Below, one piece after another: positions 1-52,515 of a stretch of 55,391 nucleotides of DNA; the first letter of the stretch is position 1; each line of letters opens with the position of its first letter. The notes below the pieces were generated by a model. The model had not been told where the DNA came from and did no database searches. It saw only the letters and a list, made by a program, of their open reading frames with translations. The DNA lies in the IMG/VR virus record IMGVR_UViG_3300036771_000024, positions 1 through 55,391 of that record; one strand, 5' to 3'. A program made the translations under genes and the position numbers. The DNA comes from a virus. Lineage: Duplodnaviria; Heunggongvirae; Uroviricota; Caudoviricetes.

Positions 1-92
1 CGTCCTTTATTCCTTCCTTTCCTGGTGCTGGTGCGGGGGTGCGGCCCCGGGCTGGGACGGCCTGGTGGCACCCGGGGCCGCACGTCTTAGGG

Positions 93-332
93 TTACTCGG
101 TGAGGTTGGTTATCTTCTCTGCCATGATGACTGAGTACACCGCGTAGATGACCGCGACGACAGCAGCAATGATCCAGCTCTCGTCTATGCAGTAGCCGAG
201 GAACAAGCCGAAACCTGTCATCCCCGTACAGGCCGCGTGACCCCCCACCTGGAGGTGGCGCCACGTGCGGAGCGCACCTGTCGTGGTGTTCCTCGCACGG
301 ACCGGCCATGTGTGGTTCTCTGAGCTGGACAT
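93..332 (-). CDS. small membrane protein
   Basis: ATG overlaps upstream stop (TAACCATG); hydrophobic C-terminal half GFGLFLGY...WIIAAVVAVIYAVYSVIM. Confidence 0.6.
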   Translation of the reverse strand: MSSSENHTWPVRARNTTTGALRTWRHLQVGGHAACTGMTGFGLFLGYCIDESWIIAAVVAVIYAVYSVIMAEKITNLTE

Positions 333-37019: not shown

Positions 37020-37319
37020 ATGTCCAACAAGCGGAAGCTGAAGGTTTCCGGTGCGGAACCCGCGGAACGCTGCTCGTCCTGCGGGCGGCGTATCGGGGCT
37101 AACGCTGACGCCTTGCGGTTGCGGACCGGCCAGGTTATCTGCCCGCGTTGCCGCCAGTCGGGGGACCTCCCCCGGCTGGCGTGCGGGCATTACGCTCTGC
37201 CCGGGACGCTGATCAGCTCAGACAGCGAAGATCACAGCACGATGCAGTGCCCGCGCTGCTCACCGGTAGCGGGTAAGTTCGGCATGGCAAGGCTTGGCCT
37301 GCCCCAGCAGGGGCAGTAG
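37020..37319 (+). CDS. zinc-finger protein
   Basis: CSSC, CPRC, CGH, CPRC. Confidence 0.6.
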   Translation: MSNKRKLKVSGAEPAERCSSCGRRIGANADALRLRTGQVICPRCRQSGDLPRLACGHYALPGTLISSDSEDHSTMQCPRCSPVAGKFGMARLGLPQQGQ

Positions 37320-37322
37320 TAT

Positions 37323-37365
37323 CTGACCGCACCGGCGGAGACACGGGCTCCGCTGGTGCGGCCAG
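37323..37365 (+). terminator. long hairpin after capsid/ZnF genes
   Basis: CTG-A-CCGCACC-GGCGGAG / CTCCGCT-GGTGCGG-C-CAG. Confidence 0.55.
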
Positions 37366-37399
37366 TCATAAGATGCATGAAGAAGATAGGAGAGGTGCC

Positions 37400-38640
37400 A
37401 TGGCGGGTACTAACCAGCCGAGTCAGAAGCCGGACGGCGGCGGCCAGCGTGCTGGTGGCGGTCGTGGCTACTCTGGCGTTTCCGGGGGTAATGACCCCAC
37501 GACCGAACCGGGTCAGTACCCACCGGCCAGCGACGGTGGTATTTTCGGTGGCCCCCTCCCCACGGGGACGGGCGCACCGGGCACGACCGGCGGACGTGGC
37601 GGTGGCGATGACACGACTGAGCCGGGTCAGCTGACTGACGGCCTGACTGGTGTCGATGACTCGGATATCACCAGCACGGGTGCCCCGGGTACGTCCACTT
37701 CCCCGGGTAGCGGTGGTGGCGGCACGTCGGTCACCTACACGAAGATGGGGTCGCACCTGACGGGTACGTACCAGTCGGAGACTTCCAGCGAGACCCTCAC
37801 CGGTCCTGGTGAGTCGACCGAGGCGAACAGTGAGGGTTACGCGACGGGCGGCCCGCAGCTCCCCGGTATCAAGGGGAACGAGCCGGTACCTGGCGGGAAA
37901 TACCAGCCTGGCAGTGGCCGGGTCCTGCGTGGCGGAAGGGCGGTGCGGGGATGAGTGACGTAGCACGTCAGTACCCGCCTGGTTCGGAACCATCGAAGGG
38001 TGGCGGCCTGCTGGCGGTGCAGTACCCGCCCGGCCTGGAGAAGGCCAGTCACCAGAACAAGGACCTGGCGCACGACTACAAGGATGACCGGACCAAGTAG
38101 GAGGCCGCTATGCAGGATCTTTCTAACCTGCTGAAGCCCGACCCGGTGACCGCCCTGGCTCCCACGTCGCAGGCTGGCGGGAACCAGATCGTCAGTAACG
38201 CGAACGCGCAGACCGCGCCGGGCAGCCAGCCTGCGCAGCCAGCGACGAGTATCACCGGTGAGGTCATCGATCACAACGAGCCGGTCATCCCGGCTTCCGG
38301 GCCGAAGATCCCGCCTGGCACGGATGGTAAGCCGCAGCCTGGTAAAACGTGGTCGCCGGGTGCACCGGCGTGGAAGAAGTAGGAGGAAATCATGCCTCAA
38401 GTTCCTGCCCCGGTCGAGGGCACCCCGAATCTGCCGTACCAGCCGTATGACGCGTCCGCCGAGGGCACGTCGGACACCGCACCAGGCCCCGGCCAGGTGT
38501 ATGACGGCAACAGCGGTGCAGACCCGACCGGCTGGGAGAAGCTGCGTGACGGCGGTGCTGCTGACATGAGCAGCGGCCGGGTCACCGGTGGCTGGCCTGA
38601 TAACGGCACGTCTGACGGTTCTGCCTGGAAGCAGACCTGA
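37400..38640 (+). CDS. four low-complexity Gly/Pro/Thr/Ser-rich proteins (37400..37954, 37951..38100, 38110..38382, 38392..38640)
   Basis: Strong RBSs (GGAG/AGGAGG); composition seen directly; TTEPGQ...TGAPGT duplicated in the first. Confidence 0.7.
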
Positions 38641-38780
38641 TCCTGCGCCGGTTAGCGGCTGGCACCTGGAGGGCCCATGTGGTGGGTTACTGTCACTGGT
38701 GCGGCGGTTGGTCGCTGGAACCTCTCGATTCCTCATACATGTGCGGGCGGTGCCGGGATGGGTGGAGAGAAGCACACACC

Positions 38781-39455
38781 ATGCGTGACCTGCTGATCAT
38801 CACCCCGACCCGGGGCCGCCCTCACGGGGCCCAGCGCCTGATCGACGCGGTAGAGAAAACCTCCACAGCCGTGACTGACCTGGTGTTCGCGATGGACGAC
38901 GACGACCCGTCTTACCCTGGCCTGACCGGGCGGTTCGAGTCAACTAGCGGCCCGAGAGACACGTGCGGCGGGTGGACGAACAAGATCGCCGCTGAACGCC
39001 TGGGCAGGTACCACGCGATCGCGTCGATCGGTGACGACCATGAGCCTCTCACCCGCGGGTGGGACACCATACTGCTGAACGCCATCGTGGACATGGGCGG
39101 TACGGGTATCGCCTACGGGAACGACACTGAGCACGGTGAAGACGTTCCTACCGCAGCGGTGATCAGCTCTGACATCGTGGCGGCACTGGGCTGGGTGTTC
39201 GAGCCGACCATGAATCACTTCTACGCCGACCTGGTGTGGAAAGAGATAGCGTGGGCGTCGTGCCTGGCGTACCTGCCTGGCGTGATCATCAAGCATTACA
39301 ACCCGAACTACGGCACCGCCCCCATGGATGACACGTACACGGAGGCCCGTGACCGTTACGGTGAAGACGGCGACGCGTACAAGGTGTGGGGTGAGCACCG
39401 CCGCGCTGCTGACACTGCCACGGTCAGGGCACTGGCACAGGCCAGGCGGTCGTGA
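38781..39455 (+). CDS. GT-A (GT2-like) glycosyltransferase
   Basis: LLIITPTRGRP, FAMDDDD, IGDDH, YGND, HFYADLVW. Confidence 0.75.
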   Translation: MRDLLIITPTRGRPHGAQRLIDAVEKTSTAVTDLVFAMDDDDPSYPGLTGRFESTSGPRDTCGGWTNKIAAERLGRYHAIASIGDDHEPLTRGWDTILLNAIVDMGGTGIAYGNDTEHGEDVPTAAVISSDIVAALGWVFEPTMNHFYADLVWKEIAWASCLAYLPGVIIKHYNPNYGTAPMDDTYTEARDRYGEDGDAYKVWGEHRRAADTATVRALAQARRS

Positions 39456-40225
39456 AGATTTACGACTCGTTCCTGTTCCGTGACGAGCTGGACCTGCTGG
39501 AATGCCGCATGGTCCAGATGGACACCTGGCCGGTGTGGCAGCACATTCTCGTAGAGGCGAAGGTGGATCACCAGGGGCACCAGAAGCCGCTGGTGTACGC
39601 GGAGAACCGGGAGCGGTTCGCACCGTGGGCTGACCGGATCAGGCACGTCGTCGTGGATTCCCTGCCTGACGCCGAGCCGATGATACGGGAAGCAGCACAA
39701 CGGGACGCGGTATCCCGGGGCCTGACTGACGTTGAGGCGGGTGACTGGCTGATCCTCGCTGACGTGGACGAGATCCCGAACGATGTCGCGCTGGCAGCGG
39801 TGAAGAACCGCGAGGTGGGCGTGTTCGAGATGGTCTGCTGCATGTTCGCGGTCGACTGGCTGTGGGGGCCGCCGCTGAAAACCTCCGTGATCCTGCCGGC
39901 TGGTAACGGCGGGCAGATGTCCGTAGCACGCAGGGACGGGTGGTCCGCCGGGCCGGAGATACCGGGTGCGGGTCACCACCTGACGTGGCTAGGCGGGCAG
40001 GACGGGATCGCCGCGAAGATAAACTCGCACTGCCACACCGAATGTAACGCGGGCCTGGCCACGGGGAACGCCGCGGATGTTCTCTACCAGCATGGCCATA
40101 ACCCGTTCGGGACACGCTTCGGGTACTCGGACCAGATGATCCCGGTAGACGTGGACGAGTCGTGGCCACGCTGGGTGTATGAGAAACGCTGCCCCGGGAA
40201 CTGGTTCCGTCCCAGGGCAGGCTAG
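39452..40225 (+). CDS. GT17-like (beta-1,4-GlcNAc transferase family) glycosyltransferase
   Basis: IYDSFLFRDELDLLECR, REAAQRD, ILADVDEIP, GHHLTWLGG. Confidence 0.8.
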   Translation: MKIYDSFLFRDELDLLECRMVQMDTWPVWQHILVEAKVDHQGHQKPLVYAENRERFAPWADRIRHVVVDSLPDAEPMIREAAQRDAVSRGLTDVEAGDWLILADVDEIPNDVALAAVKNREVGVFEMVCCMFAVDWLWGPPLKTSVILPAGNGGQMSVARRDGWSAGPEIPGAGHHLTWLGGQDGIAAKINSHCHTECNAGLATGNAADVLYQHGHNPFGTRFGYSDQMIPVDVDESWPRWVYEKRCPGNWFRPRAG

Positions 40226-40234
40226 GATGACCGC

Positions 40235-41200
40235 GTGAGATACCTGATAACTGGCGGGGCCGGTTTCATCGGTTCCGCGCTGACACGCCGCCTGTCCCTA
40301 GAAGGCCACGAGACAGTCGTCCTGGATGACATGAGCCGCGGCCGGGATGACCGGCTCAGCGGACTGGAACGCTGCCACATCATCCACGGTGACGTACGCG
40401 AACCCGACATCGTGAACTACGCATCGCTGGGCTGCGAGACCATCCTGCATTTGGCTTACATGCAGGGAACCCAGACTTTCTACTCCGAACCCCGCCAGGT
40501 CCTCGACGTGGCCCTGCGGGGGATCGTGAACGTCCTCGAAGCGTGCCGGGTGAACGCCTGCCGGGAACTGCTCCTGGTGTCCTCATCGGAGGCGTACGAG
40601 ACACCCCCGGTGTGGCCCACCCCCGAGGAAGTGCCGCTGGTCGTGCCTGACCCGCTGAACCCGCGCTACTCCTACGGGGGCGGGAAGATCGCATCGGAGC
40701 TGGCCGCGCTGGCGTGGCAGCGGACCGGGATCCTGGACCGGCTGGTCATCGTCAGGCCCCATAACATTTACGGGCCGGACATGGGCACCCACCATGTGAT
40801 CCCCGAGTTCTGCCAGCGGATGAACGAGCTGACCAGCACCCACCCTGACGGGCCTATCGCGTTTCCCATCCAGGGAAGCGGTCAGGAAACACGGTCGTTC
40901 TGCTGGATCGATGACTGCGTGGACCAGTTCATGCTTCTGCTGGCGAACTCACCGGCCGGTTCTGAGATTTACCACATGGGCACGATGGAGGAGAAAACAG
41001 TCGCTGACGTGGCGTACCGTATCGCTGAGTGTTACGGGCGGAACATTAAACTGGAACCGGGGATCCTCCCGAAGGGTTCCCCGTCGCGCCGCCTCCCTGA
41101 CATCGCGAAGATCACCCGTCTCGGGTACACCGGGCCCCGGGTCGGTTTCGATGAGGGTGTCGCCCGCGCCGCAGCCTGGTACCGTGAGCATCATGGCTGA
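40235..41200 (+). CDS. NAD-dependent NDP-sugar epimerase/dehydratase (extended SDR; UDP-glucuronate decarboxylase-like)
   Basis: ITGGAGFIGS, SSSEAY, RYSYGGGK (YxxxK), RPHNIYGP, TRSFCWIDD. Confidence 0.9.
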   Translation: MRYLITGGAGFIGSALTRRLSLEGHETVVLDDMSRGRDDRLSGLERCHIIHGDVREPDIVNYASLGCETILHLAYMQGTQTFYSEPRQVLDVALRGIVNVLEACRVNACRELLLVSSSEAYETPPVWPTPEEVPLVVPDPLNPRYSYGGGKIASELAALAWQRTGILDRLVIVRPHNIYGPDMGTHHVIPEFCQRMNELTSTHPDGPIAFPIQGSGQETRSFCWIDDCVDQFMLLLANSPAGSEIYHMGTMEEKTVADVAYRIAECYGRNIKLEPGILPKGSPSRRLPDIAKITRLGYTGPRVGFDEGVARAAAWYREHHG

Positions 41201-41438
41201 GACGACGCAGGAACGGCCCCGGCGGATGCACTGGCGCAACCAGGATCTGCTCGACGCGCTGAAAGAAGCAGGAATCATCCGTGATGGTGATTACGTCCGC
41301 AGGGTCGTGATCGACGTGTGCGTGGGCAGCGCAGTCGTGGTCCACGTTGAACGGTACGGGGATGACCGGCTGCTGCGGGTGATCCGCGGGATGACCGGGG
41401 TGGATGTTCACTGTGACACGAGGGCCGAGAATGAGTAG
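41193..41438 (+). CDS. hypothetical protein
   Basis: 81-aa ORF overlapping both neighbours. Confidence 0.55.
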   Translation: MAETTQERPRRMHWRNQDLLDALKEAGIIRDGDYVRRVVIDVCVGSAVVVHVERYGDDRLLRVIRGMTGVDVHCDTRAENE

Positions 41439-42639
41439 GCACCTCGGCACCTATTACCGCCCCGAGGGACCGGTGCTTTCCTGCGGTTCGTGCGGCTCCG
41501 GCGGCCTGGAACATGTCCTCGACCTGGGGATGCAGCCGACCCCCCAGGCTACCGTAGGCAAGAAGAACAGCACGTACCCGCTGAGGCTGGTTAAATGCCC
41601 CAGATGCACCCTCGTCCAGCTCGATTACATCGCACCGCAGGACGAAGTGTTCGGAGTAGACTATCCGTACACCACCGGGAACACCAAAGCTCTCCGTGAC
41701 CATTTCGAGCAGCAGGCCAAAGACGTGGACACCCTGCTGTGGAACGAGGGCTTCACCCTGCGCGGTGCTGTCCCCGGGCCGCTGGTCATCGACATCGGCG
41801 GCAACGACGGGACGATGCTGAAAGCGCTCCGCAACGAGGCCCCCGATGCGCGGCTGATGCTGATCGAGCCGACTGACCAGGCGAAACGCTGCACCGACCA
41901 TTTCATCGAAGTGGTGCAGGAGTATTTCACCGCTGACCTGGCCGAGGACATCCGGGCGCAGCGTGGTGCCGCGCAGGTCATCACCGTGTCGAACGTGTTC
42001 GGGCATATCCCCGACCCGCATGACTTCCTCGACGGCATCCAGATCCTGCTGGCCGAGGATGGCACGTTCCTGATCGATAACCAGGACTGGTACAACGTAT
42101 CCCAGGACCTCCAGATCGACACGATCTATCACGAGCACCTGCGGTTCTACACCCCGGCGTCGCTGGGGCTGCTGCTCGCCCAGCACGGCCTGATGATCAC
42201 GAGCTGGAACCGGATAGGGATGCACGGCGGCTCGTTCCGCGCCCTGGTGGTCAGGGAGAAGCCCGACCTGGAAGTCCGGTCGATGGCGGTGGTCAACAAG
42301 CTGATCGGCCTGCTGTATGAGGCTGAGCGGGCCGGGCCTATCTACGCGGTGACAGCACCCACCCGGGCGACACCGCTGGTGAACTACGCGGGCCTGGGGA
42401 AGTTCCTGACGTGCGCGTGTGAGGTTGCCGGGTCGGAGAAGATCGGCGCGACCATACCGGGCACGGAAGTGCCGATCGTGGACGAGAAGGTGCTGTTCGA
42501 GGAGCAGCCGCCCACCGCCCTGCTCCTGGCGTGGGACCTCGCCAGGGGACTCATCCCCGCTTTGCAGCGCAAAGGGTACAGGGGTGACTTCATCGTCCCC
42601 CTGCCCGAGCCGAGGATCGTCAAAGGGGTGACGGACTGA
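41431..42639 (+). CDS. NDP-hexose C-methyltransferase (TcaB9/EryBIII-like architecture)
   Basis: Zn site CGSC...CPRC, LDLGMQP, YPYTTG, DIGGNDG, NVFGHIPD, DTIYHEHLRFY, HGGSFR. Confidence 0.88.
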   Translation: MSRHLGTYYRPEGPVLSCGSCGSGGLEHVLDLGMQPTPQATVGKKNSTYPLRLVKCPRCTLVQLDYIAPQDEVFGVDYPYTTGNTKALRDHFEQQAKDVDTLLWNEGFTLRGAVPGPLVIDIGGNDGTMLKALRNEAPDARLMLIEPTDQAKRCTDHFIEVVQEYFTADLAEDIRAQRGAAQVITVSNVFGHIPDPHDFLDGIQILLAEDGTFLIDNQDWYNVSQDLQIDTIYHEHLRFYTPASLGLLLAQHGLMITSWNRIGMHGGSFRALVVREKPDLEVRSMAVVNKLIGLLYEAERAGPIYAVTAPTRATPLVNYAGLGKFLTCACEVAGSEKIGATIPGTEVPIVDEKVLFEEQPPTALLLAWDLARGLIPALQRKGYRGDFIVPLPEPRIVKGVTD

Positions 42640-44012
42640 TGCCTGAGCCGATGATCCCGCTGCGGCTGATACCCCCAGCCCACCGACGCAGCGGGGTCAT
42701 CTCGGTGACTGTCCCGTCGCGGGGACGTGAGGCGAAGCTGGCTGACTCCCTGCGGTCGCTGCTTCAGACAGCGCACCGCCCGGATCTCATCGAGATCCTC
42801 GTCGCGTACGACCCGGATGACCCGGACACGAAAAAGGTCGCGGTCCTGATGAACGCCGACGTGATCTGGGAGGCACCCGAACGGTACGGGTACGCCCGGT
42901 CAGGTCACTACTGGGCTGAGCTGCTGAACCGCTCGACCGGCGAGTGGGTGCTGCCCACCTGGTCCGATGATGCGATCATGAAATCCCCGAACTGGGACGA
43001 CATGCTCCGCGCGCAGCCCCCGGGTTCCATCGCCTACCTCGACGGCAACTACCCGGGGCTGACATGTTTCCCGGCGGTCCACGCTGACGCGCTCGGCGCT
43101 ATCGGCAGGCTCGCACCGCTGCCCGCACTGGACACGTGGTTCGAGTATGCGGGACGTGACAGCGGCAACCTCGTGCACCCTGGTATCTACGTCCACCAGG
43201 ACCGCCCCGACCTGACCGGCTGCGAAGCAGACCAGACCCACGCTGAGGGCGGGGGTGCGTGGCGCAGCGGTGCGGGCGGCACGGTCCAGCAGGCGTTCTA
43301 CCAGATGCCGTACGTCGAATGGCGGGCGGAAGACACCATGGCCCTGCGTCATCACCGCCAGATCGAAGAAGAGTACCAGGCCCGGATGGGTGCCTGGTCG
43401 GACATCATAGAGCAGATGCCGCTGATCAGGCAGGCTGCCCGGTCCTACTGGAAACCTGTCATCGGCGAGCTGGGAACCCGCACCGGTGAGTCAACATCGG
43501 CGCTGATCGCCGGGGCTTCCGCTTCTGGCGGCCACGTGTACAGCGTGGACCTGGACATGGGTGACCGGACTGGTGCCCCTAACGGTTTCAATGCCCCGCC
43601 GTGGTGGTGCGAGCAGGCAGGACTGTGGTCCGCGCTGTCCGGTAACGACCTGGGTGACGAGGCGGCAGCGTTCATCCCGGCCGAGCTGGACATCCTGTTC
43701 ATCGACACGTCGCACCTGTACCAGCACACCCTGGATGAGCTGGCCATGTACGTCCCCCGGGTGAAGCCGGGCGGCACGGTCCTGATGCACGACGTGGAGC
43801 TGACCATCGGGGAGATGGTCGCCTACGGTGAACCGGGCGCTAGGGAAGATACCTACAGCCCCGAGTACCCGGTCGCAGCGGCGCTGGACTTCTACTGCTC
43901 CCAGCACGGGCTGACATGGACCCGCCAGACTGAAAGGCCCAGCCCGGTGCCGGGACGCCCGTTCTTCGGGCTCGGCACCATCGTGATCCCCGGGGGAGGT
44001 GATGCCCTGTGA
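42639..44012 (+). CDS. GT-A glycosyltransferase fused to class I SAM methyltransferase (Methyltransf_24-like)
   Basis: N-term SVTVPSRGR...YDPDD...WSDD (paralogous to 38781); C-term ELGTRTGEST, LFIDTSHLY, VKPGGTVLMHD. Confidence 0.8.
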   Translation: MPEPMIPLRLIPPAHRRSGVISVTVPSRGREAKLADSLRSLLQTAHRPDLIEILVAYDPDDPDTKKVAVLMNADVIWEAPERYGYARSGHYWAELLNRSTGEWVLPTWSDDAIMKSPNWDDMLRAQPPGSIAYLDGNYPGLTCFPAVHADALGAIGRLAPLPALDTWFEYAGRDSGNLVHPGIYVHQDRPDLTGCEADQTHAEGGGAWRSGAGGTVQQAFYQMPYVEWRAEDTMALRHHRQIEEEYQARMGAWSDIIEQMPLIRQAARSYWKPVIGELGTRTGESTSALIAGASASGGHVYSVDLDMGDRTGAPNGFNAPPWWCEQAGLWSALSGNDLGDEAAAFIPAELDILFIDTSHLYQHTLDELAMYVPRVKPGGTVLMHDVELTIGEMVAYGEPGAREDTYSPEYPVAAALDFYCSQHGLTWTRQTERPSPVPGRPFFGLGTIVIPGGGDAL

Positions 44013-44078
44013 CGACTGTCGCGCCGTATCCTTCGCCTTATCCAGGGTCTTGTGGCAGGGTGGGTGGGTGAGCAAGAC

Positions 44079-45341
44079 ATGAAACTGAGCCTGGTGAGCT
44101 GCCGGTCCCCGTTTCTCGATGACGACCGGATCTACCCGCCGCTGGGGCTGCTGTACCTGAAAGCCGCGGTGATGGCGCAGGTCCCCGAAGCCAAGGTCGA
44201 CGTGATCGATGACTACGGTGACCCGGGTGAGTTCGCGGACGCTGACGTGATAGGCGTCTCGGTGATGACACCGCAGCGTAAAGAAGCCGACCAGCTGGCC
44301 CGCATGATCAAGGACGCGTGGCCGGACAAGACGCTGATCGCCGGTGGCCCGCACGTTCGGCATTACGGCCGGGACATGTCGGACCGGTGGGATTACCTGG
44401 TCGGCGGGGACGGTGAACGTGTCCTGCCGCAGATCCTGCGGGGCGAACGTGTCCCCCGCACCACGTACGACCAGATCCCACGCGCCGAGCTGGCGGCTAT
44501 GCCGCCACCGGACCGGCTGGGTGAAGCGTCGTTCCTGCGGGGTTACACGTACAAGCTCGCGGGCCTGCCGTCCACGACGATGCTGCTGGGGCGCGGATGC
44601 CCGATGGCATGCAAGTTCTGCGAGGACGCCCGGACGCTGACCCGGTGGACGTCGCTGGAAAACGCCGAGGCGGAACTAGCCGACATCGTTCTGCTGGGCT
44701 ACCGCGGCGTGTACTTGTTCGATGACCTGTTTGCGATTAACCTGGGAAAATGCCAGCCATACCTGAACCTGCTGAAGAAGTCGGGCCTGAAATTCCGGTG
44801 CAACGTCCACGCGAAGTTCATGACGGACGAGTTCGCCGCGGCCCTCTCCTCCGCTGGATGCGTCGAAGTAGCGTTCGGGGCAGAGAGTGGTTCCCAGCAG
44901 ATCCTGGACCGGATCGACAAGAAGACGACTGTGCAGCAGAATTACGACTGCGTGCGGCACTGCAAGAACCACGGGATCACCGTGAAGGCGTTCCTGATGA
45001 TCGGCCTGCCCGGTGAGAACATGGAGACAATCGCCGAGACGGAGCGGTTCATCTGCACGTCCGGTATCGATGACGCGCAGATCGCGATCTACTACCCGTA
45101 CCGGGGTACTGAGCTGCGCCGCGAAATGGACGAGGGCCTCACCACGGACCTGGCGTTCGAGGGTGAGGGGCTAGGTGCGTACGGGCAGAAGAACCTGGGG
45201 ACCGACTCGGTGGTCCGCACCGAGGAACTCACCGCGCATGACCTGGTGCGGATCCGGTCGGACCTGATCGAGACGTACAAGTTCCACTCCCACGTGGGAC
45301 CCCGGGATCATTTCTTCGACACGCACATGGCGGTGTCGTGA
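44079..45341 (+). CDS. cobalamin-binding radical SAM enzyme (class B methyltransferase-like)
   Basis: YPPLGLLYL, IGVSVMT, IAGGPHV, GDGE, RGCPMACKFC (CxxxCxxC), FDDLF, GAESGSQQIL, FLMIGLPGE. Confidence 0.9.
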   Translation: MKLSLVSCRSPFLDDDRIYPPLGLLYLKAAVMAQVPEAKVDVIDDYGDPGEFADADVIGVSVMTPQRKEADQLARMIKDAWPDKTLIAGGPHVRHYGRDMSDRWDYLVGGDGERVLPQILRGERVPRTTYDQIPRAELAAMPPPDRLGEASFLRGYTYKLAGLPSTTMLLGRGCPMACKFCEDARTLTRWTSLENAEAELADIVLLGYRGVYLFDDLFAINLGKCQPYLNLLKKSGLKFRCNVHAKFMTDEFAAALSSAGCVEVAFGAESGSQQILDRIDKKTTVQQNYDCVRHCKNHGITVKAFLMIGLPGENMETIAETERFICTSGIDDAQIAIYYPYRGTELRREMDEGLTTDLAFEGEGLGAYGQKNLGTDSVVRTEELTAHDLVRIRSDLIETYKFHSHVGPRDHFFDTHMAVS

Positions 45342-45958
45342 GCCTCCCCCTGGTCTCGGTGATAACCGCTACGTGGAAGCGGAATGACCTGCTGCTGAGC
45401 CGGTGCATCCCGTCGGTGCAGGCGCAGGGATACCCCGCGGTGGAACACATCGTCATCTCCGACGGGCCGGACAACAGGCTGGCCAGGCGGCTGGCTGAAC
45501 CGCGGCTGGACGGGTGGAAGAACCTGCTGTACAAGGAGGTGGACTGCCACGTCAGCGACGACCATTACGGTCATTACGCGCGGCTACTCGGCCTGGAATA
45601 CGCGTCAGGCGAGTACGTCACCTACTGCGACGACGACGACTCGCTGCGGCCGGACCACTGTTACCGCCTCGCCACGGCACTGGATGAGGATCCTGACGCA
45701 GGGTTCGCCGTGTCGCGTATGGTCGCGCACCACGCCCACCCGGTGACGGTCGGGTGGGGGCCGCTCGCACCCGGCAACGTGGGCTCCCCGATGATCATGC
45801 ACCGCAAGTGGGTGCTGGACCACGGCACGTGGGGACCGGCTTCGTGGAAGGAAGACTGGGAGCTGGTCGAACGGTGGCTGGACGCGGGCGTCAAGTACGT
45901 GAACGTGGACGCTGAGACTTCCGACGTGTGGCCGTCACGGTTCCGGGTTGAGGCGTGA
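45338..45958 (+). CDS. GT2 glycosyltransferase
   Basis: LVSVITATWKR, EHIVISDG, GEYVTYCDDDD, EDWELV. Confidence 0.88.
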   Translation: MSLPLVSVITATWKRNDLLLSRCIPSVQAQGYPAVEHIVISDGPDNRLARRLAEPRLDGWKNLLYKEVDCHVSDDHYGHYARLLGLEYASGEYVTYCDDDDSLRPDHCYRLATALDEDPDAGFAVSRMVAHHAHPVTVGWGPLAPGNVGSPMIMHRKWVLDHGTWGPASWKEDWELVERWLDAGVKYVNVDAETSDVWPSRFRVEA

Positions 45959-46629
45959 AAGCCTTCATCATCTTCCGGGATCGTGTGACATACGCGGCCC
46001 GGTGTGCTGCCGCACTGGCCCGTGCTGGCCTGGAAGTGGTCATCGTGGACCAGGGATCCACGTATCCTCCTGCGCTGGCCTGGCTGGACGTGCTGGAGAT
46101 CCGCGCAGGCACGCAGGTGCTCCGAAAGGGCGGCGGGCACCCGCAGGAACTATGGGGCTGGGACCCCTTCCGGCAGGCATGCGGGACTGAACGGTACGTC
46201 GTGACCGACCCGGACGTGGTACCGGATGACCTGTGCCCGCTGGACTGGCCGGAACGGCTGGAGAAAATCCTGGACGACTCGGACTACTCCAAGATCGGGA
46301 TGGGCCTGCGGATCGATAACATCCCCGAGACGTACCAGCATCACGACCACGTGGTCGAGTGGGAACGGCAGTTCTGGACGCACCCCGTGGGTGACGGCAG
46401 CGTGTTCTCCGCGCAGGTCGACACGACCCTGGCGATGTACAACCCGCTGCCCGACTTCCCCCACTTCACCATCGACGGGCTCCGCACCGGCCCCCCGTAC
46501 GTAGCGGAGCACCTGGCGTGGTATGAGGACCTTGAAAATCTTTCACCGGAGTTGCAGTATTACCATGAGCACGCCGAAGCTGGCATCTCATTCTGGACTC
46601 TGGAGGACCGCAGTGCCTGGAACCAGTGA
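45955..46629 (+). CDS. GT2-like glycosyltransferase
   Basis: VVIVDQGSTYPP, YVVTDPDVVP (DxD), VDTTLAMY. Confidence 0.75.
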   Translation: MKAFIIFRDRVTYAARCAAALARAGLEVVIVDQGSTYPPALAWLDVLEIRAGTQVLRKGGGHPQELWGWDPFRQACGTERYVVTDPDVVPDDLCPLDWPERLEKILDDSDYSKIGMGLRIDNIPETYQHHDHVVEWERQFWTHPVGDGSVFSAQVDTTLAMYNPLPDFPHFTIDGLRTGPPYVAEHLAWYEDLENLSPELQYYHEHAEAGISFWTLEDRSAWNQ

Positions 46630-47173
46630 CCGGACGATCATCTTCCCGTCTATCACCACGGCGGTCACCCCCGCTGAGTCAGCGGAGCTGGCCCGGCTCG
46701 CAACCGGGTGCACAGTCCTGGAACTGGGGTCGTTCTACGGGTACTCCACGATCGTGATGGCGTCGGTCGCTGACATGGTGTACTCAGTCGACTGGCATCA
46801 GGGCGACGACCACGCGGGCCAGTACGACACGTGGGAAGACTTCAACGCGAACCTGCTCGGGTATGGTGTCAAACCGCACGTGCAGGCGGTGAAGGGCCGG
46901 TTCGAGGAGGAAGTGCCCCGGCTGTGGCGTGCGGGTGTCCGCACTGACGGCGCGTTCCTCGACGGCCAGCACGACGAAGCCTCTGTCCGCAGGGACCTGG
47001 AACTGGCACTCATGCTGGTTAAGCCGGGCGGGTGGGTCGCGTTCCACGACTACGGGCGTGGTGAGGAAACAGGACACCACGGGTTCGAGGTCACGAAGGT
47101 AGCGGACGACTTCGGTGTGACCGACGTGGTGGGCTGCCTGGCGTGGGGAACCTACGAGCCGCCCGAAGACTGA
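46613..47173 (+). CDS. class I SAM methyltransferase (Methyltransf_24-like, probable O-MTase)
   Basis: VLELGSFYGYST, AFLDGQHD, VKPGGWVAFHDY; GGAGG-N6-GTG start. Confidence 0.85.
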   Translation: MPGTSDRTIIFPSITTAVTPAESAELARLATGCTVLELGSFYGYSTIVMASVADMVYSVDWHQGDDHAGQYDTWEDFNANLLGYGVKPHVQAVKGRFEEEVPRLWRAGVRTDGAFLDGQHDEASVRRDLELALMLVKPGGWVAFHDYGRGEETGHHGFEVTKVADDFGVTDVVGCLAWGTYEPPED

Positions 47174-47174
47174 C

Positions 47175-47658
47175 ATGCGTCACTGGCTGGGTGTCGACTC
47201 GGGTGAAGGCGTGCCGTACCTGTTCTACTCGGGGCTGTTCGGCGTGATCGTGTTCACGCTCGGTCAGGTCGCGAACGTGTACGCCACGCTGCGGCGGAAC
47301 AACTGCCACCAGCCGAACTGCTGGCGTCTCGGCCGGTTCCCCGTGGAGGGCACCGCGTGGAACTGCTGCCACCGGCACCACCCGGAACCCCCGGTGAAAG
47401 AAACGATCCGCGAGCGGTACCACCTGTATGCGGGAGACAAGATCGGTGATGGCTGATAACGCAGACGGCCTGGCGGATTTCATCATGGGCCTGCCCGAGG
47501 GTGAACGCCACAAAGGGTTTTTCTGGGCGGCGAAGACCGCGGCCGGGAATGACCTGCCGCCAGTCGAGGTGACGAAGATCATCAACGCGGGTATCCGCGC
47601 CGGGCTGGAAGAAGCGTACGTCCACCGGACCGTCACCGAAGCGCAGGAGGAAAAGTGA
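47175..47658 (+). CDS. membrane protein (47175..47456) and small hypothetical protein (47449..47658)
   Basis: YLFYSGLFGVIVFTLG TM segment, CHQPNCW...CCHRHHP; coupled ORFs. Confidence 0.55.
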
Positions 47659-47715
47659 GCCGTTTCATGATCCCGCGGGTAGCTCACTGTTCCACCGGCG
47701 GTTTACAATCTTGAC

Positions 47716-48726
47716 GTGAAGATTTTCGCTGGTCATGATGGCGGGTCCGGGTGCGGCTGGTACCGCATGGAACTCCCCATGGCACAGCTCGCCGCCCACG
47801 GCTACGAGGTGACGCTGGCATCGGCGGATGCGGATAAGACACCGGGTATCACCGCCCGCTCTATGGAGGGTCACGACGTGATCGTGGCGCAGCGGTTCAA
47901 CAAGCCCGGTGGCGTCCACATTTACCGTGAAGCCCGCACCCCGCGGAACCGGCTGGTGTACGAGCTGGACGACGACGTGTTCGCGATCTCACCGGAGAAC
48001 TTCAACGCGTACCACATGTGGCAGCGGCCCGACATCCTGGATGCGGCGACGCACGCGATGGAAGTGTCAGACCTGATAACGTGCAGCACGGAGCCGCTGG
48101 CGGAGGTGCTCCGCGAGTACAACCCCAACGTGGCCGTGCTGCCTAACCACATCCCCGGGTGGGTATGTGACGTGGAACGGAACCGGCGGGTGCGCCCAGC
48201 AGTGGGCTGGGCCGGGGGCGCTTCGCATGGCGCGGACGTTGGCCTGATCTCTGGTCCGGTCCGCCGGTTCCTCAAACGTTTCCCCGGGTGGGACCTGCGC
48301 CTGACCGGGACGGATTACCGTCCCACGTTCAAGGCGGGTGACCGTGCGGTCTTCACCAAGTGGGTGCAGGTCAACGACCACCCGGAGAAGTTCTACAAGT
48401 CTCCCGACTGGGACATCGGGCTGGCCCCCGTGGTGCCGAACCGGTTCAACGCAGCCAAGTCGTGCCTGAAAGCGATGGAGTACGGGGCTCTGGGCATACC
48501 CACGATCGCGTCGGACTACTACCCGTACACCGGTTACATCCGGCACGGCGAGACCGGGTTCCTGGTCAGGCGGGATCACGAGTGGCTCAGCTACATGTCG
48601 GAGCTGGCCTCCGACGACAGCCTGCGGGAGAAAATGGGTGCCGCTGCCCGTGAGCAGGCCCGCCAGTGGACCATCGAGAACGGGTGGGCGAAATGGGCGG
48701 AGACTTACGAGGGGCTGTTCCGGTGA
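47716..48726 (+). CDS. GT-B (GT4-like) glycosyltransferase
   Basis: GCGWYRMELP, VYELDDD, VGWAGGASH, DIGLAP...KSCLKAMEYGALGIPTIASD; TACAAT-N6-GTG leaderless start. Confidence 0.88.
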   Translation: MKIFAGHDGGSGCGWYRMELPMAQLAAHGYEVTLASADADKTPGITARSMEGHDVIVAQRFNKPGGVHIYREARTPRNRLVYELDDDVFAISPENFNAYHMWQRPDILDAATHAMEVSDLITCSTEPLAEVLREYNPNVAVLPNHIPGWVCDVERNRRVRPAVGWAGGASHGADVGLISGPVRRFLKRFPGWDLRLTGTDYRPTFKAGDRAVFTKWVQVNDHPEKFYKSPDWDIGLAPVVPNRFNAAKSCLKAMEYGALGIPTIASDYYPYTGYIRHGETGFLVRRDHEWLSYMSELASDDSLREKMGAAAREQARQWTIENGWAKWAETYEGLFR

Positions 48727-48850
48727 TCTGCCACCCGTGCAAAATGGATTTCCACGATTCCTGTGATAACACGCAGCCGTCCCACGGTGGCGGCAACTGG
48801 TGCGACTGTCAGCATGAGGACCGGGTCTGGCCGGAGGAAGAGGAACACTG

Positions 48851-49294
48851 ATGACAAACGTTCAGATGCTGGTGCACATCACCGGCGGGCGCGCTGACGG
48901 CAGCGTGTGGCCAGCGGTGGGTCACGAGAAGCCGCTGAAGGTCAGCAAGGCTGAGGCGCAGGACCTGTACACCGCGCAGCTCGCCCGCCCCTGGCCGGGT
49001 GGTGACGAAGAGGAGCAGACCGCTGAGGCCGCTGCGACCGCGCAGACCGAGGCGCTCGTAGAGGCAGCAGTACCACCGGTGCAGTGGCCCCCCGATGAGC
49101 CGACCAGGATGGGTGCGCAGGCTGAGCCGGTAGCGGAGGCTGACGAGCCCGAGGCGCAGGATGCTGACGCACCCAAGCCGGCCGCACCCAAGGCTGACTG
49201 GGTGGAATGGGCGGTGTCGCAGGGTGCTGACGAGGAAGAGGCTAACGCTTCCACGAAACAGCAGCTGATGGAACAGTACGGGGCGCGCCCGTGA
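48851..49294 (+). CDS. Ala/Glu/Pro-rich protein with small C-terminal helical domain
   Basis: KADWVEWAVSQGADEEEANASTKQQLMEQYG. Confidence 0.6.
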   Translation: MTNVQMLVHITGGRADGSVWPAVGHEKPLKVSKAEAQDLYTAQLARPWPGGDEEEQTAEAAATAQTEALVEAAVPPVQWPPDEPTRMGAQAEPVAEADEPEAQDADAPKPAAPKADWVEWAVSQGADEEEANASTKQQLMEQYGARP

Positions 49295-49472
49295 CGACGC
49301 GCGTAACCAAATCGAACGGCAAGGTCTCGTTCGATAACGGTGAAACCTGGCATACGGTCACTGACATGGAAATGTCGTGGAGCACCATCGAGGAAACCCG
49401 TGGCGGGGAAGAACCGGGTGACTGGAAGGTCGCCTGCGAGGTCATCCCGGTGGTCAAGGAGAAGGACAGCGA

Positions 49473-50009
49473 ATGACCACGAAGCTCCGTGAGCTTCTCG
49501 ACACGGTCCGGCAGGTTGACCGGAAGTGGCAGAAGCAAGTTGAGGTCCCGGAAAAATTCACCCCGTGGATGCCCGCTGACGTGGCCCAGTACCTGGTGCT
49601 GCTGATCGAGGCGATGCATGAGGCACCGGGGGAGAAGTTCCTTGAGATCGGCTGCGGCCCGGGCACGAAGATGCTCCTGGCGCGGGACGCCCTGTGTGAC
49701 ATGCTGGACGTATCCGGGTTCGACCGGGTCCCCGAATACGTGCAGGCCGCACGTGAACTTGGCCTGAACGCCGTGGTGTGCGACGCGTTTGACTACCCGG
49801 CGTACAACAAGCATGACATCGTGTTTTTCAACCGGCCGTTCCGTGACCGGCAGATGCAACGTGACCTGGAACGCCTCGTCTACACGAGGATGCGCCGAGG
49901 TGCCGTGGTGATCTGCATGAACCTGGAGAACAAGCCGCCATCTGACAAGTTCCTCGTCATCACCGACGACTGGGAAGAGGGGCGGCGCGGGGTATGGCTG
50001 AAGTTGTAA
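49473..50009 (+). CDS. class I SAM-dependent methyltransferase
   Basis: FLEIGCGPG, GFD, CDAFDY, DIVFFNRPF. Confidence 0.82.
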   Translation: MTTKLRELLDTVRQVDRKWQKQVEVPEKFTPWMPADVAQYLVLLIEAMHEAPGEKFLEIGCGPGTKMLLARDALCDMLDVSGFDRVPEYVQAARELGLNAVVCDAFDYPAYNKHDIVFFNRPFRDRQMQRDLERLVYTRMRRGAVVICMNLENKPPSDKFLVITDDWEEGRRGVWLKL

Positions 50010-50138
50010 TCTCCCACGACTACGGCGGGGACGTAGGCGAGAACCCCGTGACCGCGCCGGTGGAGAACAAGGTCGTGGTGGCTGGCCTGGCATCGGCTTC
50101 CGCGGCACCGGGTCCAGCGGAAGTCGAGGAACCTGACA

Positions 50139-50657
50139 GTGGCGTGGACTGACAGCCGCATTTTCCAGCAGGCTATGCTCAACCCGATCGCAGGGCGTTC
50201 CTGGACGACAGCGGCACCCACCACATATTCTTCGCTTTCCGCCGATACGATCGACGTGTCACTTTTCAATAACACGACCACCCCTGACCGCACCGCAGCG
50301 GTCGCTAACACCGGATATAACACGGGGGTATGGGTCACCGGTAATGAGGTTGTGGACGTGACGAACTGGGTGGCTGGCGGCCGGGCGCTAGCATCGAAGA
50401 CGTTCACCATCGACACCGGTTCATCCAGTATCTGTTTCGGTGCGGCGAACCTGTCCGGTGGCGGCAACGTCACCCTGGCGAACGTGTTCGGGTGCTTCGT
50501 CTACGACGCCACGATCACAGGCGGAACAGTCTTGAAGCAGGGGCTCTGCTATAACTACTTCGGCGGGGCCCAGGGTGTCACCGCCGGGGCTTTCACGATC
50601 GTCTGGGCGACACCCGGTGGTGGCGCTATCAGCGCGGTCTTCAACATTACCGTGTGA
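50139..50657 (+). CDS. putative virion structural protein, paralog A
   Basis: Thr/Gly/Ala-rich beta protein, TNWVAGGRAL, GVTAGAFTIVW. Confidence 0.7.
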   Translation: MAWTDSRIFQQAMLNPIAGRSWTTAAPTTYSSLSADTIDVSLFNNTTTPDRTAAVANTGYNTGVWVTGNEVVDVTNWVAGGRALASKTFTIDTGSSSICFGAANLSGGGNVTLANVFGCFVYDATITGGTVLKQGLCYNYFGGAQGVTAGAFTIVWATPGGGAISAVFNITV

Positions 50658-50977
50658 GGCTGGATATGAACGTTCCCCTGCTCGTCGCCTACCAGGACTG
50701 GTACTGCCCGGAGTGCGGGGCTGAGGAGCGTACCCCGCCGCTCCCTCCGAACTCGTCACGCATGCACACCTGCCCTCGACTCCACATGCTCACCGCGCCC
50801 CTGGTGCGGGCCGGAGCGGACTGCAAGCTCGTCGCCAGTGAACGCGAGGACTACCTGGGTGACGAAGTGCAACGCACCGGGGACGACGGAAAGCCATACA
50901 TGAACGTGGAAACACAGCACGCCGATGGGCACAACGACATCGCCGTTTTCGCGCCAGTAGCGAGAGGTTACCTGTGA
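50654..50977 (+). CDS. hypothetical protein
   Basis: WYCPEC...MHTCP; coupled to upstream stop. Confidence 0.6.
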   Translation: MRLDMNVPLLVAYQDWYCPECGAEERTPPLPPNSSRMHTCPRLHMLTAPLVRAGADCKLVASEREDYLGDEVQRTGDDGKPYMNVETQHADGHNDIAVFAPVARGYL

Positions 50978-51118
50978 GTAAGTACGACGAGGGTGGCATA
51001 CTCCCACCCGGCTGGGCGACGGTAGAAAACGACACAGGTCAGGATCTTGTTATCCACGCACCCTGCGCAGCGGCGCAGGGTTCAGCGTCCATGAACAGCG
51101 AATCTGAGGAGGCGGGCG

Positions 51119-51622
51119 ATGGCCTGGACTGACAGCCGGATCTTCACCCAGGCGGTACTGAACCCGCTCACCGCGTCCGCGTGGTCTACGGTCGAGCCCA
51201 CCTCGTATGGTGCGACCGGGTTGTCCACGGACACGATTAACGTCGCTACGTACAACAACTCGGTGACACCCGACCGTGACGCTGCTGTCGCATCCACCGG
51301 ATACGCGACGGGCACATGGTCCGGTAACGAGATCACCGGGACGAACTGGGCGGCTGGCGGGCAGGCTCTCGGATCCAAGACTTACACCGCCAACCTGGGC
51401 GCTGTGCCGTTCATCGTTTCGTTCGACGCGGCTGACGTATCCGTGGCTGCTGTCACCTTGCTGGCGTTCTTCGGGGACCTGACGTACGACAACACGATCT
51501 CAGGCGGGACCGTCGCGAAGCAGGGATACTGTTTCCACTACTACGGCGGGACGCAGAGCGTCACGGCGGGCAACCTCACGATCATCTGGGACACGACCGG
51601 GGTCTTCCGGTTCAGCGTTTAA
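51119..51622 (+). CDS. putative virion structural protein, paralog B
   Basis: MAWTDSRIF start identical to 50139; alignable end to end. Confidence 0.75.
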   Translation: MAWTDSRIFTQAVLNPLTASAWSTVEPTSYGATGLSTDTINVATYNNSVTPDRDAAVASTGYATGTWSGNEITGTNWAAGGQALGSKTYTANLGAVPFIVSFDAADVSVAAVTLLAFFGDLTYDNTISGGTVAKQGYCFHYYGGTQSVTAGNLTIIWDTTGVFRFSV

Positions 51623-51633
51623 GGAGAAGCAGC

Positions 51634-51933
51634 ATGATCTTGACGGGCACGTTCAATCTCGCTGGCGATCCGACTATCTCCGTGGATATCGTCGCCGCCG
51701 CCTACGAAAACGCCGGGCTCAGCGTCCCTCCCGAATACCCTGACCAGCACTGGTATCTTCAGCGGGCTGACACCGCTTCTGTCTCGCTGGAAGGTTTCGC
51801 GGCCACCGGCTACCCGCTGCCAGGCAATGCAGGATCTGTTACTCAGTACAATTTCCCACTGGGCAACACTCCACACCTGCGGAATCACTCCACTAGCACA
51901 GCCACGCTCTACTACATACTAGTAGCTAGCTGA
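51634..51933 (+). CDS. hypothetical protein
   Basis: AAGGAG RBS, 99 aa. Confidence 0.6.
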   Translation: MILTGTFNLAGDPTISVDIVAAAYENAGLSVPPEYPDQHWYLQRADTASVSLEGFAATGYPLPGNAGSVTQYNFPLGNTPHLRNHSTSTATLYYILVAS

Positions 51934-51942
51934 CAAAGCAAC

Positions 51943-52515
51943 GTGAGAATCTGCTACTTCTGGACGAAGCTCTGGGACGAGGCCGTCGAGGCGCTCCCAC
52001 CCGACGCCGAGCAAGTGTACGTCGGTGAGTCGCTTACCTCCTACTGGGACGCTCTGAGCGCACGGTGGGGCACTGATGACCTGATGATCGTGGAGCACGA
52101 CATCGTTCTGCACGACCAGGTGGTGGAGCAGTTCGAGGCGTGCCCGAACGTTTGGTGCACGTTCCCGTACTGGCATGACGAGTGGCTGGACGAGGCCCTC
52201 GGGTGCACCCGGCTCCGCCTGTCGATCCAGCAGCAGATCACCCCGGCGGAGATCCAGGAGGAATCCTGGGGGTCGTGCTGGGAGTGCAACCCGACCGCGA
52301 CGATGCCGACCGTGGATGAGCTACGAGACCTGCCGAAGTGGCGGCAGCGGATCAAGGACGGCGAGATCCTGGGATGCTGGCGTCACATCGACGGAAAGCT
52401 CATCTGGTCGATGCGCAGGCATAAGCAGAAGGTGTGCGTACACCTGCCCACGGTGGAACACCTGAGTCACCGTGTCATCCCCGATGGTAATTTTTACGTG
52501 AGGAGCTGGGAATGA
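51943..52515 (+). CDS. putative GT-A glycosyltransferase-like protein
   Basis: DLMIVEHDIV (DxD variant), ALGCTRL, WRHID...HLPTVEH. Confidence 0.5.
   Translation: MRICYFWTKLWDEAVEALPPDAEQVYVGESLTSYWDALSARWGTDDLMIVEHDIVLHDQVVEQFEACPNVWCTFPYWHDEWLDEALGCTRLRLSIQQQITPAEIQEESWGSCWECNPTATMPTVDELRDLPKWRQRIKDGEILGCWRHIDGKLIWSMRRHKQKVCVHLPTVEHLSHRVIPDGNFYVRSWE

Follow-up and report, generated by a model that had tools for sequence, protein, structure and literature searches.

A glycosyltransferase and sugar-tailoring gene island in the virion operon of an uncultured actinophage, a candidate system for glycosylation of the phage particle

We analysed the first 55.4 kb (the window; 55,391 nucleotides, G+C 64%) of the IMG/VR virus record IMGVR_UViG_3300036771_000024, which comprises 119,391 bases with a CheckV completeness estimate of 97%. 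After the end of the major capsid gene (37015) and before the head-tail adaptor gene (56650), thus between capsid and tail genes, the plus strand carries a tightly packed block of about 10 kb (38679-48726). It encodes four glycosyltransferases (GTs) supported by hidden Markov models (HMMs), two weaker GT-A-like domains, an extended short-chain dehydrogenase/reductase (SDR), a 3-C-methyltransferase, a B12-binding radical S-adenosylmethionine (SAM) enzyme and two Methyltransf_24 domains. What the sequence data show directly is to which families the enzymes belong, that they are of soluble character, where they stand in the virion operon and that they are conserved across related phages. We consider it reasonably probable that this phage-encoded system glycosylates the phage's own particle. 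Virion proteins are the most likely acceptors because of the structural-gene neighbourhood, the precedent of the mycobacteriophage Corndog and the co-inheritance of threonine (Thr)-rich proteins with the enzymes.

Most junctions within the block are overlaps of 1-4 bases or gaps of 1-11 bases, in agreement with the translational coupling described in an earlier, sequence-only reading of the locus, and promoter- or terminator-like sites were no more frequent in the block than in shuffled sequence. That reading had the block start immediately behind the capsid gene; in fact the capsid gene and the first GT gene are separated by five small genes (37020-38640), and a clear Shine-Dalgarno sequence precedes three of these. 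They encode one probable zinc-ribbon protein and four low-complexity proteins. The three reading frames at 37951-38640, which share one frame, were also considered as a single read-through gene. We rejected this, as an AGGAGG precedes the ATG of the second and third and the first overlaps its upstream neighbour by 4 bases. The features are collected in Table 1, and genes and their products are referred to by the first position of the gene.

Table 1. Genes of the enzyme island, its surroundings and further glycan-related genes of the genome (aa, amino acids; E, E-value; ORF, open reading frame; GC3, G+C content at third codon positions; pLDDT, predicted local distance difference test)
Feature	Position	Strand	Evidence and remarks
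Head module	from 29.4 kb	+	terminase (phrog_9), portal (Phage_portal E 2e-53), S78 prohead protease, HK97-type capsid
HK97-type major capsid protein	35777..37015	+	Pfam Phage_capsid E 1e-56; upstream border of the island
99-aa protein with three CxxC pairs, probably a zinc ribbon	37020..37319	+	ORF and sequence read; similar gene in relative L009
Gly/Thr/Ser/Pro-rich low-complexity protein, 184 aa, basic C-terminal tail	37400..37954	+	S+T 0.23, G 0.27
Three small genes	37951-38100, 38110-38382, 38392-38640	+	second and third Pro/Thr/Gly-rich; GC3 frame signal
GT with N-terminal CxxC...CxxC	38679..39455	+	phrog_14945 E 1.7e-34
GT17-like glycosyltransferase	39452..40225	+	Pfam Glyco_transf_17 E 7.9e-18, 65 bits vs cut-off 26; profile positions 74-193 of 348 only
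Extended SDR, NDP-sugar, dehydratase/decarboxylase type	40235..41200	+	Pfam Epimerase E 1e-36
NDP-4-keto-sugar 3-C-methyltransferase, TcaB9/TylC3 type (predicted)	41404..42639	+	Methyltransf_13 47 bits, Methyltransf_23 58.6 bits, Methyltransf_14 63 bits, all above cut-offs
Fusion of a GT-A-like N-terminal half and a Methyltransf_24 C-terminal half	42639..44012	+	Methyltransf_24 E 6e-14, residues 277-386
B12-binding radical SAM enzyme	44052..45341	+	Radical_SAM E 1e-19, 71.5 bits; B12-binding E 1e-9, 38.7 bits vs cut-off 32.1
GT2 glycosyltransferase	45338..45958	+	Glycos_transf_2 E 2.7e-14
Probable GT-A-like protein (lead only)	45955..46629	+	language-model features 0.99 to viral 'GTA_type' cluster
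Class I SAM methyltransferase (Methyltransf_24)	46523..47173	+	Pfam E 7.5e-17
GT-B (GT4/GT1-type) glycosyltransferase	47716..48726	+	Glycos_transf_1 E 1e-8; phrog_7162 E 1e-54
Head-tail connector-type protein	48851..49294	+	phrog_2322 E 4e-10
Class I SAM methyltransferase among connector genes	49473..50009	+	Methyltransf_31 E 3.8e-7
Thr/Ser-rich paralogues	50139-50657 and 51119-51622	+	paralogy by tblastn; zinc-ribbon gene 50654-50977 between them
Minimal GT-A-fold glycosyltransferase (predicted)	51943..52515	+	AlphaFold2 pLDDT 92.5, model on 16 homologues
Thr/Ser/Ala-rich protein, 206 aa	52512..53132	+	S+T 0.21
Fibre-type protein, 1152 aa, Ala/Thr/Gly/Val/Ser/Pro-rich	53176..56634 (window holds to 55391)	+	phrog_553 minor tail protein E 1e-15
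Short UDP-glucose/GDP-mannose dehydrogenase-family protein	58208-58990		between tail terminator and tail-tube gene
GT-B	58987-60048		pairs with the dehydrogenase, between tail terminator and tail-tube gene
GT	70602-71240		phrog_34859; after the gene of a 1080-residue minor tail protein
Paralogue of the island GT2	92037-92831 (L090:19037-19831)		family profile E 2e-58; Pfam GT2 E 7e-14

Seven GT-like domains had been counted in the sequence-only reading. Five of them are solid by HMM or structure, and the remaining two, 45955 and the N-terminal half of 42639, stand as leads. The first GT probably starts at 38679 and not at 38781; it has no Pfam match, and its homologues carry a glycosyltransferase annotation in 63 Streptomyces phage records. 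The GT2 enzyme 45338 is the most widely shared GT of the island and was found in most relatives. The N-terminal half of 42639 reached a language-model feature score of 0.94 to viral GT2 clusters and a sub-threshold Pfam GT2 match (E ~0.1). PF00535 is present in 13% of the members of the 'GTA_type' cluster matched by 45955. For both proteins, searches for a GT-A domain with Pfam, profile-profile comparison (hhalign E 0.09-0.2) and PDB profiles gave nothing significant. We also observed that phrog_2675, which is labelled 'DNA methyltransferase', matches the 38679 GT with its first 240 positions and the Methyltransf_24 half of 42639 with positions 318-444; since its two parts match in this way, it looks like a fusion of a GT and a sugar methyltransferase, and the label may be wrong.

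For 51943, sequence searches revealed no HMM match (Pfam, PHROG) and no phmmer match in the PDB. Its AlphaFold2 model matched best the A197 protein of Sulfolobus turreted icosahedral virus (STIV; Z 12.2, root mean square deviation 2.6 Å over 138 residues). All 50 best matches were GT-A enzymes, and the fold matches include domain 1 of the capsid glycosyltransferase A064R of Paramecium bursaria Chlorella virus 1 (PBCV-1). A DL.VE(H/Q)D motif is invariant, with aspartate (D) 46, glutamate (E) 51 and D53 conserved in all 16 homologues, so that the model predicts a Rossmann-like GT-A fold whose strand 4 is followed by an acidic DxD-type motif. No homologue of 51943 was found in five related genomes, the closest relative included. 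A role of 51943 and 52512 as tail assembly chaperones was considered and rejected, as the tape measure gene lies at 61856 and the genes in chaperone position at 60677-61838.

The sugar-tailoring enzymes named in the sequence-only reading, an SDR acting on nucleoside diphosphate (NDP)-sugars, an NDP-sugar C-methyltransferase and a B12 radical SAM enzyme, were all recovered with family profiles, as were three more class I methyltransferase domains (in 42639, 46523 and 49473). The best PDB match of the SDR was human UDP-glucuronate decarboxylase (UXS1; E 1.4e-30). In the alignment with UXS1 the SDR shows a GGAGFIGS motif, SSE facing TSE and YGGGK facing YDEGK, which leaves the YxxxK motif intact; its score is below every equivalog cut-off of NCBIfam. 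Because of the likeness to UXS1, the SSE/TSE pair and the intact YxxxK, we assign the SDR to the type that passes through a 4-keto sugar, as a TcaB9-type C-3 methyltransferase requires, and it probably makes such a sugar. The neighbouring 41404 protein matched TcaB9 (PDB: 3ndi; E 7e-38) and D-mycarose 3-C-methyltransferase (PDB: 4rv9; E 1.6e-37), carries a four-cysteine zinc domain at its N-terminus (CGSC...CPRC) and is predicted to methylate C-3 of an NDP-4-keto sugar. By tblastn, relatives were detected in only 6 of 50,697 phage records, namely four huge metagenomic phages, one human faecal fragment and one cyanophage, and in no actinophage.

The radical SAM enzyme 44052 displays the CxxxCxxC motif as CPMACKFC at residue 183. 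Its best PDB match was AprD4 (E 2.7e-13), and its subfamily scores are far under the NCBIfam cut-offs (PhpK 88/600, HpnJ 86/578, AprD4 63/500). It may methylate or deoxygenate a sugar carbon. Relatives were detected by tblastn in only 3 of the 50,697 phage records. The methyltransferase 46523 occurs also in the minimal islands of the relatives L094 and L096, and 49473 shares 88% identity with its counterpart in the relative G001. A sugar-1-phosphate nucleotidyltransferase was not found in the 119 kb genome; host NDP-sugars are therefore taken as the starting material. The earlier suggestion that the phage makes its own modified nucleotide sugars thus holds for their tailoring and fails for their activation: the phage probably tailors host NDP-sugars instead of activating sugars itself.

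The enzymes are accompanied by proteins that could carry a glycan. The Gly/Thr/Ser/Pro-rich 37400 protein is a candidate glycan acceptor or decoration protein, and the Thr/Ser-rich paralogues 50139 and 51119 are candidate surface or acceptor proteins. The family of these paralogues has at least 1019 metagenomic homologues, none with a Pfam family, and the best 120 matches are at least 67% identical; AlphaFold2 on 20 homologues of 50139 gave an unusable model (pLDDT 32.7). No match to 52512 was found in Pfam or PHROG. The 1152-aa fibre protein consists of 18% alanine and 13% Thr. A domain of about 200 residues occurs twice in it, AGIPTATG-type repeats then extend over about 400 residues, and its gene contains a 183-bp tandem repeat. 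This repeat fibre is a candidate for a heavily glycosylated acceptor. The capsid protein ends in ...GAAT and the tail-tube protein in ...GIPGT; the tail-tube C-terminus (VGIPGT) resembles the repeats of the fibre. We further noted proteins or domains with zinc-ribbon-like cysteine pairs dispersed across the island (37020-37319, 50654-50977 and the N-terminus of 38679) and, within the block, a small protein with a possible membrane span (47175-47456).

The sequence-only reading had delimited the locus as 38781-52515. Nearly all of the genes it listed are present in this range, which nevertheless proved too short, as the tail genes beyond the window are interspersed with additional glycan genes. 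Two GTs with support were found there in the virion operon (58987 and 70602). Glycan genes thus stand beside virion genes at several places: the connector genes include a methyltransferase and a GT-A, a dehydrogenase and a GT-B sit by the tail-tube gene, and a GT follows a minor tail gene. The paralogue of the island GT2 closely follows a GH25 lysin gene (90306-91199), from which three small genes separate it.

The two ends of the record (window 1-100, genome 119290-119391) have about 60 bases in common that are nearly identical, with one mismatch seen, suggesting either a terminal repeat or a genome that is circularly permuted and essentially complete. A Pfam scan detected Lsr2, Rv2632c-like and DUF1707 domains in the genome beyond the window, and relatives of the capsid protein occur in prophages of Streptomyces, Amycolatopsis, Actinomadura and Pseudonocardia. 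Together these domains and the prophage relatives point to an actinobacterium as the host of this uncultured phage from soil.

A megablast search of the block against the 50,697 phage records revealed no match. With the capsid sequence we detected 384 relatives in IMG/VR. Island enzyme genes lie within 9 kb after the capsid gene in all 48 informative relatives, i.e. loci with enough sequence downstream of the capsid gene (capsids 77-95% identical). The closest relative, with a 95% identical capsid, carries the whole block in the same order at 62-84% identity, plus a second SDR. Island content differs among the relatives: the pair of SDR and C-methyltransferase, GT2 and GT4 are common, and the radical SAM enzyme is present in few loci only. 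Contigs binned with Micromonosporaceae and Kutzneria have a minimal island of Methyltransf_24, GT2 and GT4, with an oxidoreductase seen in the Micromonosporaceae contig. Two apparent peculiarities of the relatives were discarded: a 27 kb island in G003-G005, as the enzyme parts span about 8-12 kb and the remainder consists of other genes, and in-frame stops in the GT2 homologues of three relatives, which are natural stop codons included in the alignments.

In contrast, within about 10 kb downstream of the capsid no island enzyme gene was found in any of 31 actinomycete prophage loci (capsids 49-59% identical). Where prophages were checked, a gene like the connector gene 48851 and the adaptor gene directly follow the capsid gene, and the minor tail match, where seen, lies about 6-9 kb downstream of it. 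Since all 48 relatives carry the enzymes and the prophages have connector genes straight after the capsid gene, we read the block as an insertion into the virion module; on this comparison, the block and about 8 kb of Thr-rich protein genes form an insertion of about 19.6 kb in an otherwise compact head-to-tail module. A Gly/Thr/Ser/Pro-rich small protein is likewise encoded downstream of the capsid gene in 47/47 informative IMG/VR relatives and in 0/34 genomic loci. The sequence-only reading had already placed the enzymes inside the virion operon, and these comparative data strengthen the link to the virion.

The conserved position also bears on the possibility that the block makes a small glycosylated metabolite or lipid which acts on hosts or competitors in the manner of a secondary metabolite. 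The closest solved relatives of the C-methyltransferase (TcaB9, MycC3-type and KijD1-type proteins) and of the radical SAM enzyme (AprD4) do come from actinomycete antibiotic sugar pathways. However, the Pfam tally contains no aglycone-forming genes (polyketide synthases, non-ribosomal peptide synthetases, terpene synthases), the block keeps its place in the virion module strictly across hundreds of relatives, and at least six transferases exceed typical deoxysugar antibiotic pathways. We regard a metabolite as highly improbable.

The GT4 homologues of the relatives G003 and G004 are 735 and 720 aa long, compared with 336 aa in the phage analysed here, owing to an insert of about 380 residues (G003: L086:3470-4616; G004: same site, L087). 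The insert begins with cysteine, ends with histidine-asparagine followed by serine, and contains two LAGLIDADG-like motifs; judged by these hallmarks it is an intein with a LAGLIDADG homing endonuclease. Inteins mostly occupy conserved, indispensable genes, and we count this insertion in favour of glycosylation of the particle. The portal matches in G003 and G004 (L047:5142-7472 and L024:5793-8357) are also split by about 1 kb of extra sequence, and so is the terminase match in G004 (L024:242-2911). These may be further inteins or homing elements.

For glycosylation of the particle we propose the following course of events. The enzymes would be made in late expression together with the structural proteins, apparently from one long plus-strand transcription unit. 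The extended SDR would convert host NDP-sugars to an NDP-4-keto sugar, either through 4,6-dehydration or, if it starts from a uronic acid, through decarboxylation; the uronic acid could come from the short UDP-sugar dehydrogenase of the phage. A route from UDP-glucose via UDP-glucuronate and a 4-keto-pentose to a 3-C-methyl sugar is conceivable, and just as possible is one in which a dTDP- or GDP-hexose undergoes 4,6-dehydration. The TcaB9-type enzyme would then add the C-3 methyl branch and the B12 radical SAM enzyme might methylate or deoxygenate an unactivated sugar carbon. Soluble GT-A and GT-B enzymes would assemble the oligosaccharide in the cytoplasm, directly on serine (Ser) or Thr residues of virion proteins, and three class I methyltransferases, one of them fused to a transferase, would O-methylate it. 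Likely acceptors would be the 1152-residue repeat fibre, the two Thr-rich paralogues and the small protein rich in Gly, Thr, Ser and Pro, and subunits of the capsid and tail tube may serve as well.

Pfam scans detected no membrane-embedded initiating (polyprenyl-phosphate) transferase, flippase or polymerase, and none of the island enzymes has a convincing membrane span, in the sense of a strong hydrophobic span. Assembly in the cytoplasm on a soluble acceptor is the simplest reading, because membrane spans, flippase, polymerase and polyprenyl-phosphate transferase are all missing from these results. The same results argue against an action of the enzymes on the host cell envelope or on a secreted glycoconjugate, for receptor masking, phage exclusion or release, which would leave the virion unmodified. 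Such an action would have precedent, as the modification of host surface glycans by phage GTs is well known according to a review, and it would fit the GT2 paralogue next to the lysin gene in the lysis region and the possible membrane span of the small protein 47175-47456. On the other hand, the genes are inside the late virion operon, interleaved with structural genes, and the island co-occurs with virion-type Thr-rich proteins. Known host-surface conversion genes lie near lysogeny genes. We therefore consider a host-envelope function unlikely.

A glycan on the phage DNA, as a base hypermodification against restriction, was considered as well. Viral GTs are reported to build multi-sugar glycans on DNA (Pyle et al. 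2024, as cited in PMC12619734), and it is in line with such a role that in cultured Streptomyces phages the 38679 GT has homologues close to the genes for ThyX and ribonucleotide reductase. Yet a hydroxymethylase of the thymidylate synthase family (PF00303) was not found in the 119 kb genome by a search that matched 10 of 14 known genomes as a control, and this weakens the case for a glycan on hydroxymethylated DNA bases. Further, the Pfam tally of 91 proteins contains no other base-modification family, the block is placed between capsid and tail genes, and branched C-methyl sugars with about nine transferases would be unprecedented on DNA. A glycan on DNA thus appears very unlikely.

Several observations weigh against virion glycosylation as proposed here. 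The phage is uncultured, its host is placed no finer than Actinobacteria, and we infer the acceptor, the order of the reactions and the glycan itself. A 4-ketoreductase is not evident in the phage, which leaves the pathway as drawn incomplete; a second SDR is present in the relatives G001 and G005. Language-model similarity is the basis for two GT calls, 45955 and the N-terminal half of 42639. In cultured Streptomyces phages of 133 kb, the homologues of the 38679 GT are located by the nucleotide-metabolism genes mentioned above and not by structural genes; because of this, the family has no general bond to virion genes. Shared ancestry confounds the finding that the island and the Gly/Thr-rich protein occur together. 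When island-bearing phages were compared with island-less relatives, their capsids revealed neither an insertion nor a C-terminal extension particular to them, and a C-terminal Ser or Thr was found in 40/48 island-bearing and 20/31 island-less capsids (p = 0.065, the samples not being independent). Finally, no enzyme resembles Che8 gp108-110 or Corndog gp35-38 (BLASTP and phmmer, no match better than E 0.013). Owing to this lack of sequence similarity, we see an independent assembly of the same kind of system and not a member of it by descent.

If particle glycosylation is true, it would be common in soil actinophages, as hundreds of metagenomic relatives carry such an island, and it could be far more elaborate than in the few mycobacteriophages for which it has been shown, as it would involve tailored sugar nucleotides, sugars with a C-methyl branch and the chemistry of a radical SAM enzyme. 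The variation of island content between otherwise very similar capsid modules looks like diversification of a serotype type. This would speak for the particle surface as a target of selection, for instance through decoy receptors of the host, proteases, predators or adhesion to the soil matrix. A more far-reaching version, which we offer tentatively and as rather doubtful, is a widespread soil actinophage lineage (genomes of roughly 100-210 kb) with a true glycocalyx, in which dedicated mucin-like proteins for decoration and fibres bear hetero-oligosaccharides with O-methyl and branched C-methyl sugars, built by a rapidly diversifying, serotype-like island of the virion operon, a counterpart in tailed phages of the mimivirus fibrils that includes radical SAM chemistry on a virion glycan. 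The locus supplies concrete candidate acceptors, and its enzymes offer glyco-engineering a compact set of sugar methyltransferases and soluble GTs.

The decoration of phage or giant-virus particles by virus-encoded enzymes is a known kind of system. New here are the scale, the tailoring of sugar nucleotides, the chemistry of the radical SAM enzyme and the way in which transferases are spread over the entire virion operon. It is also new that mucin-like proteins accompany the enzymes and that the content varies within a single soil lineage that is widespread. Full-text literature searching found no description of this locus or lineage. To our knowledge, the only phages with demonstrated glycosylation of the particle are so far a few mycobacteriophages, and these employ two to four transferases. 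In mycobacteriophages, O-linked glycans on the C-termini of capsid and tail-tube proteins have been reported (Freeman et al. 2023, as cited in PMC12363180 and PMC12619734).

The analogy to Che8, Corndog and the giant-virus glycans that the sequence-only reading had drawn holds. Like the systems of Che8 (gp108-110), Corndog (gp35-38) and Myrna, the present one belongs to an actinobacterial phage with phage-encoded soluble GTs and a proposed virion O-glycan. Corndog and this phage also have in common that GT and methyltransferase genes lie inside the virion structural operon, and the Corndog map shows a methyltransferase and three GTs between the portal and capsid genes. The earlier contrast with phage systems made of GTs alone was for this reason overstated. 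The differences concern size and content: compared with three GTs of the Che8/Corndog type, there are about 10 kb with six GT-like domains and three more GTs in the virion operon, and in addition an SDR, a 3-C-methyltransferase, a B12 radical SAM enzyme, four methyltransferase domains and a sugar dehydrogenase. Unlike in Che8 and Corndog, the enzyme genes have those of Thr-rich accessory proteins and of a repeat fibre as neighbours, and the acceptors here are candidates only. The capsid and tail-tube C-termini of Che8 and Corndog (L133, L003) end in Gly-Ser or Asp-Ser (..KTGS, ..SDGS, ..LVGS, ..KGDS), which may be the acceptor end known from the literature. The C-terminal Ser/Thr of the island-bearing capsids recalls these ends and is not specific to island-bearing phages.

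Among eukaryotic viruses, PBCV-1 (A064R, A061L, A111/114R; PMC9614988) likewise has a virus-encoded, host-independent cytoplasmic pathway, the product of which is a methylated glycan on virion proteins. Its A064R protein joins two rhamnosyltransferase domains to an O-2 methyltransferase (PMC9614988), and this fusion of a GT and a class I methyltransferase is paralleled by 42639-44012. In contrast to the phage, PBCV-1 is a eukaryotic giant virus with N-linked glycans, scattered genes and neither a C-methyltransferase nor a radical SAM enzyme, and there is no sequence relationship beyond a shared fold. The fibril clusters of Mimivirus and Megavirinae (PMC10117803, PMC9614988) resemble the island in their clustered sugar-nucleotide tailoring enzymes, GTs and predicted methyltransferases and in a content that varies between clades. 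They decorate dedicated surface fibrils, a situation similar to the variable island and repeat fibre described here, where the fibre would be linked to the glycan. These viruses are giant viruses of amoebae with complete NDP-sugar pathways, whereas no nucleotidyltransferase was found in the phage genome. At the level of single enzymes, 41404 shares the architecture of zinc, SAM and C-terminal domains with TcaB9, TylC3, MycC3 and KijD1 (PDB: 3ndi, 4rv9, 5t6b). Unlike these proteins of actinomycete antibiotic pathways, 41404 is encoded by a phage, beside GT and virion genes.

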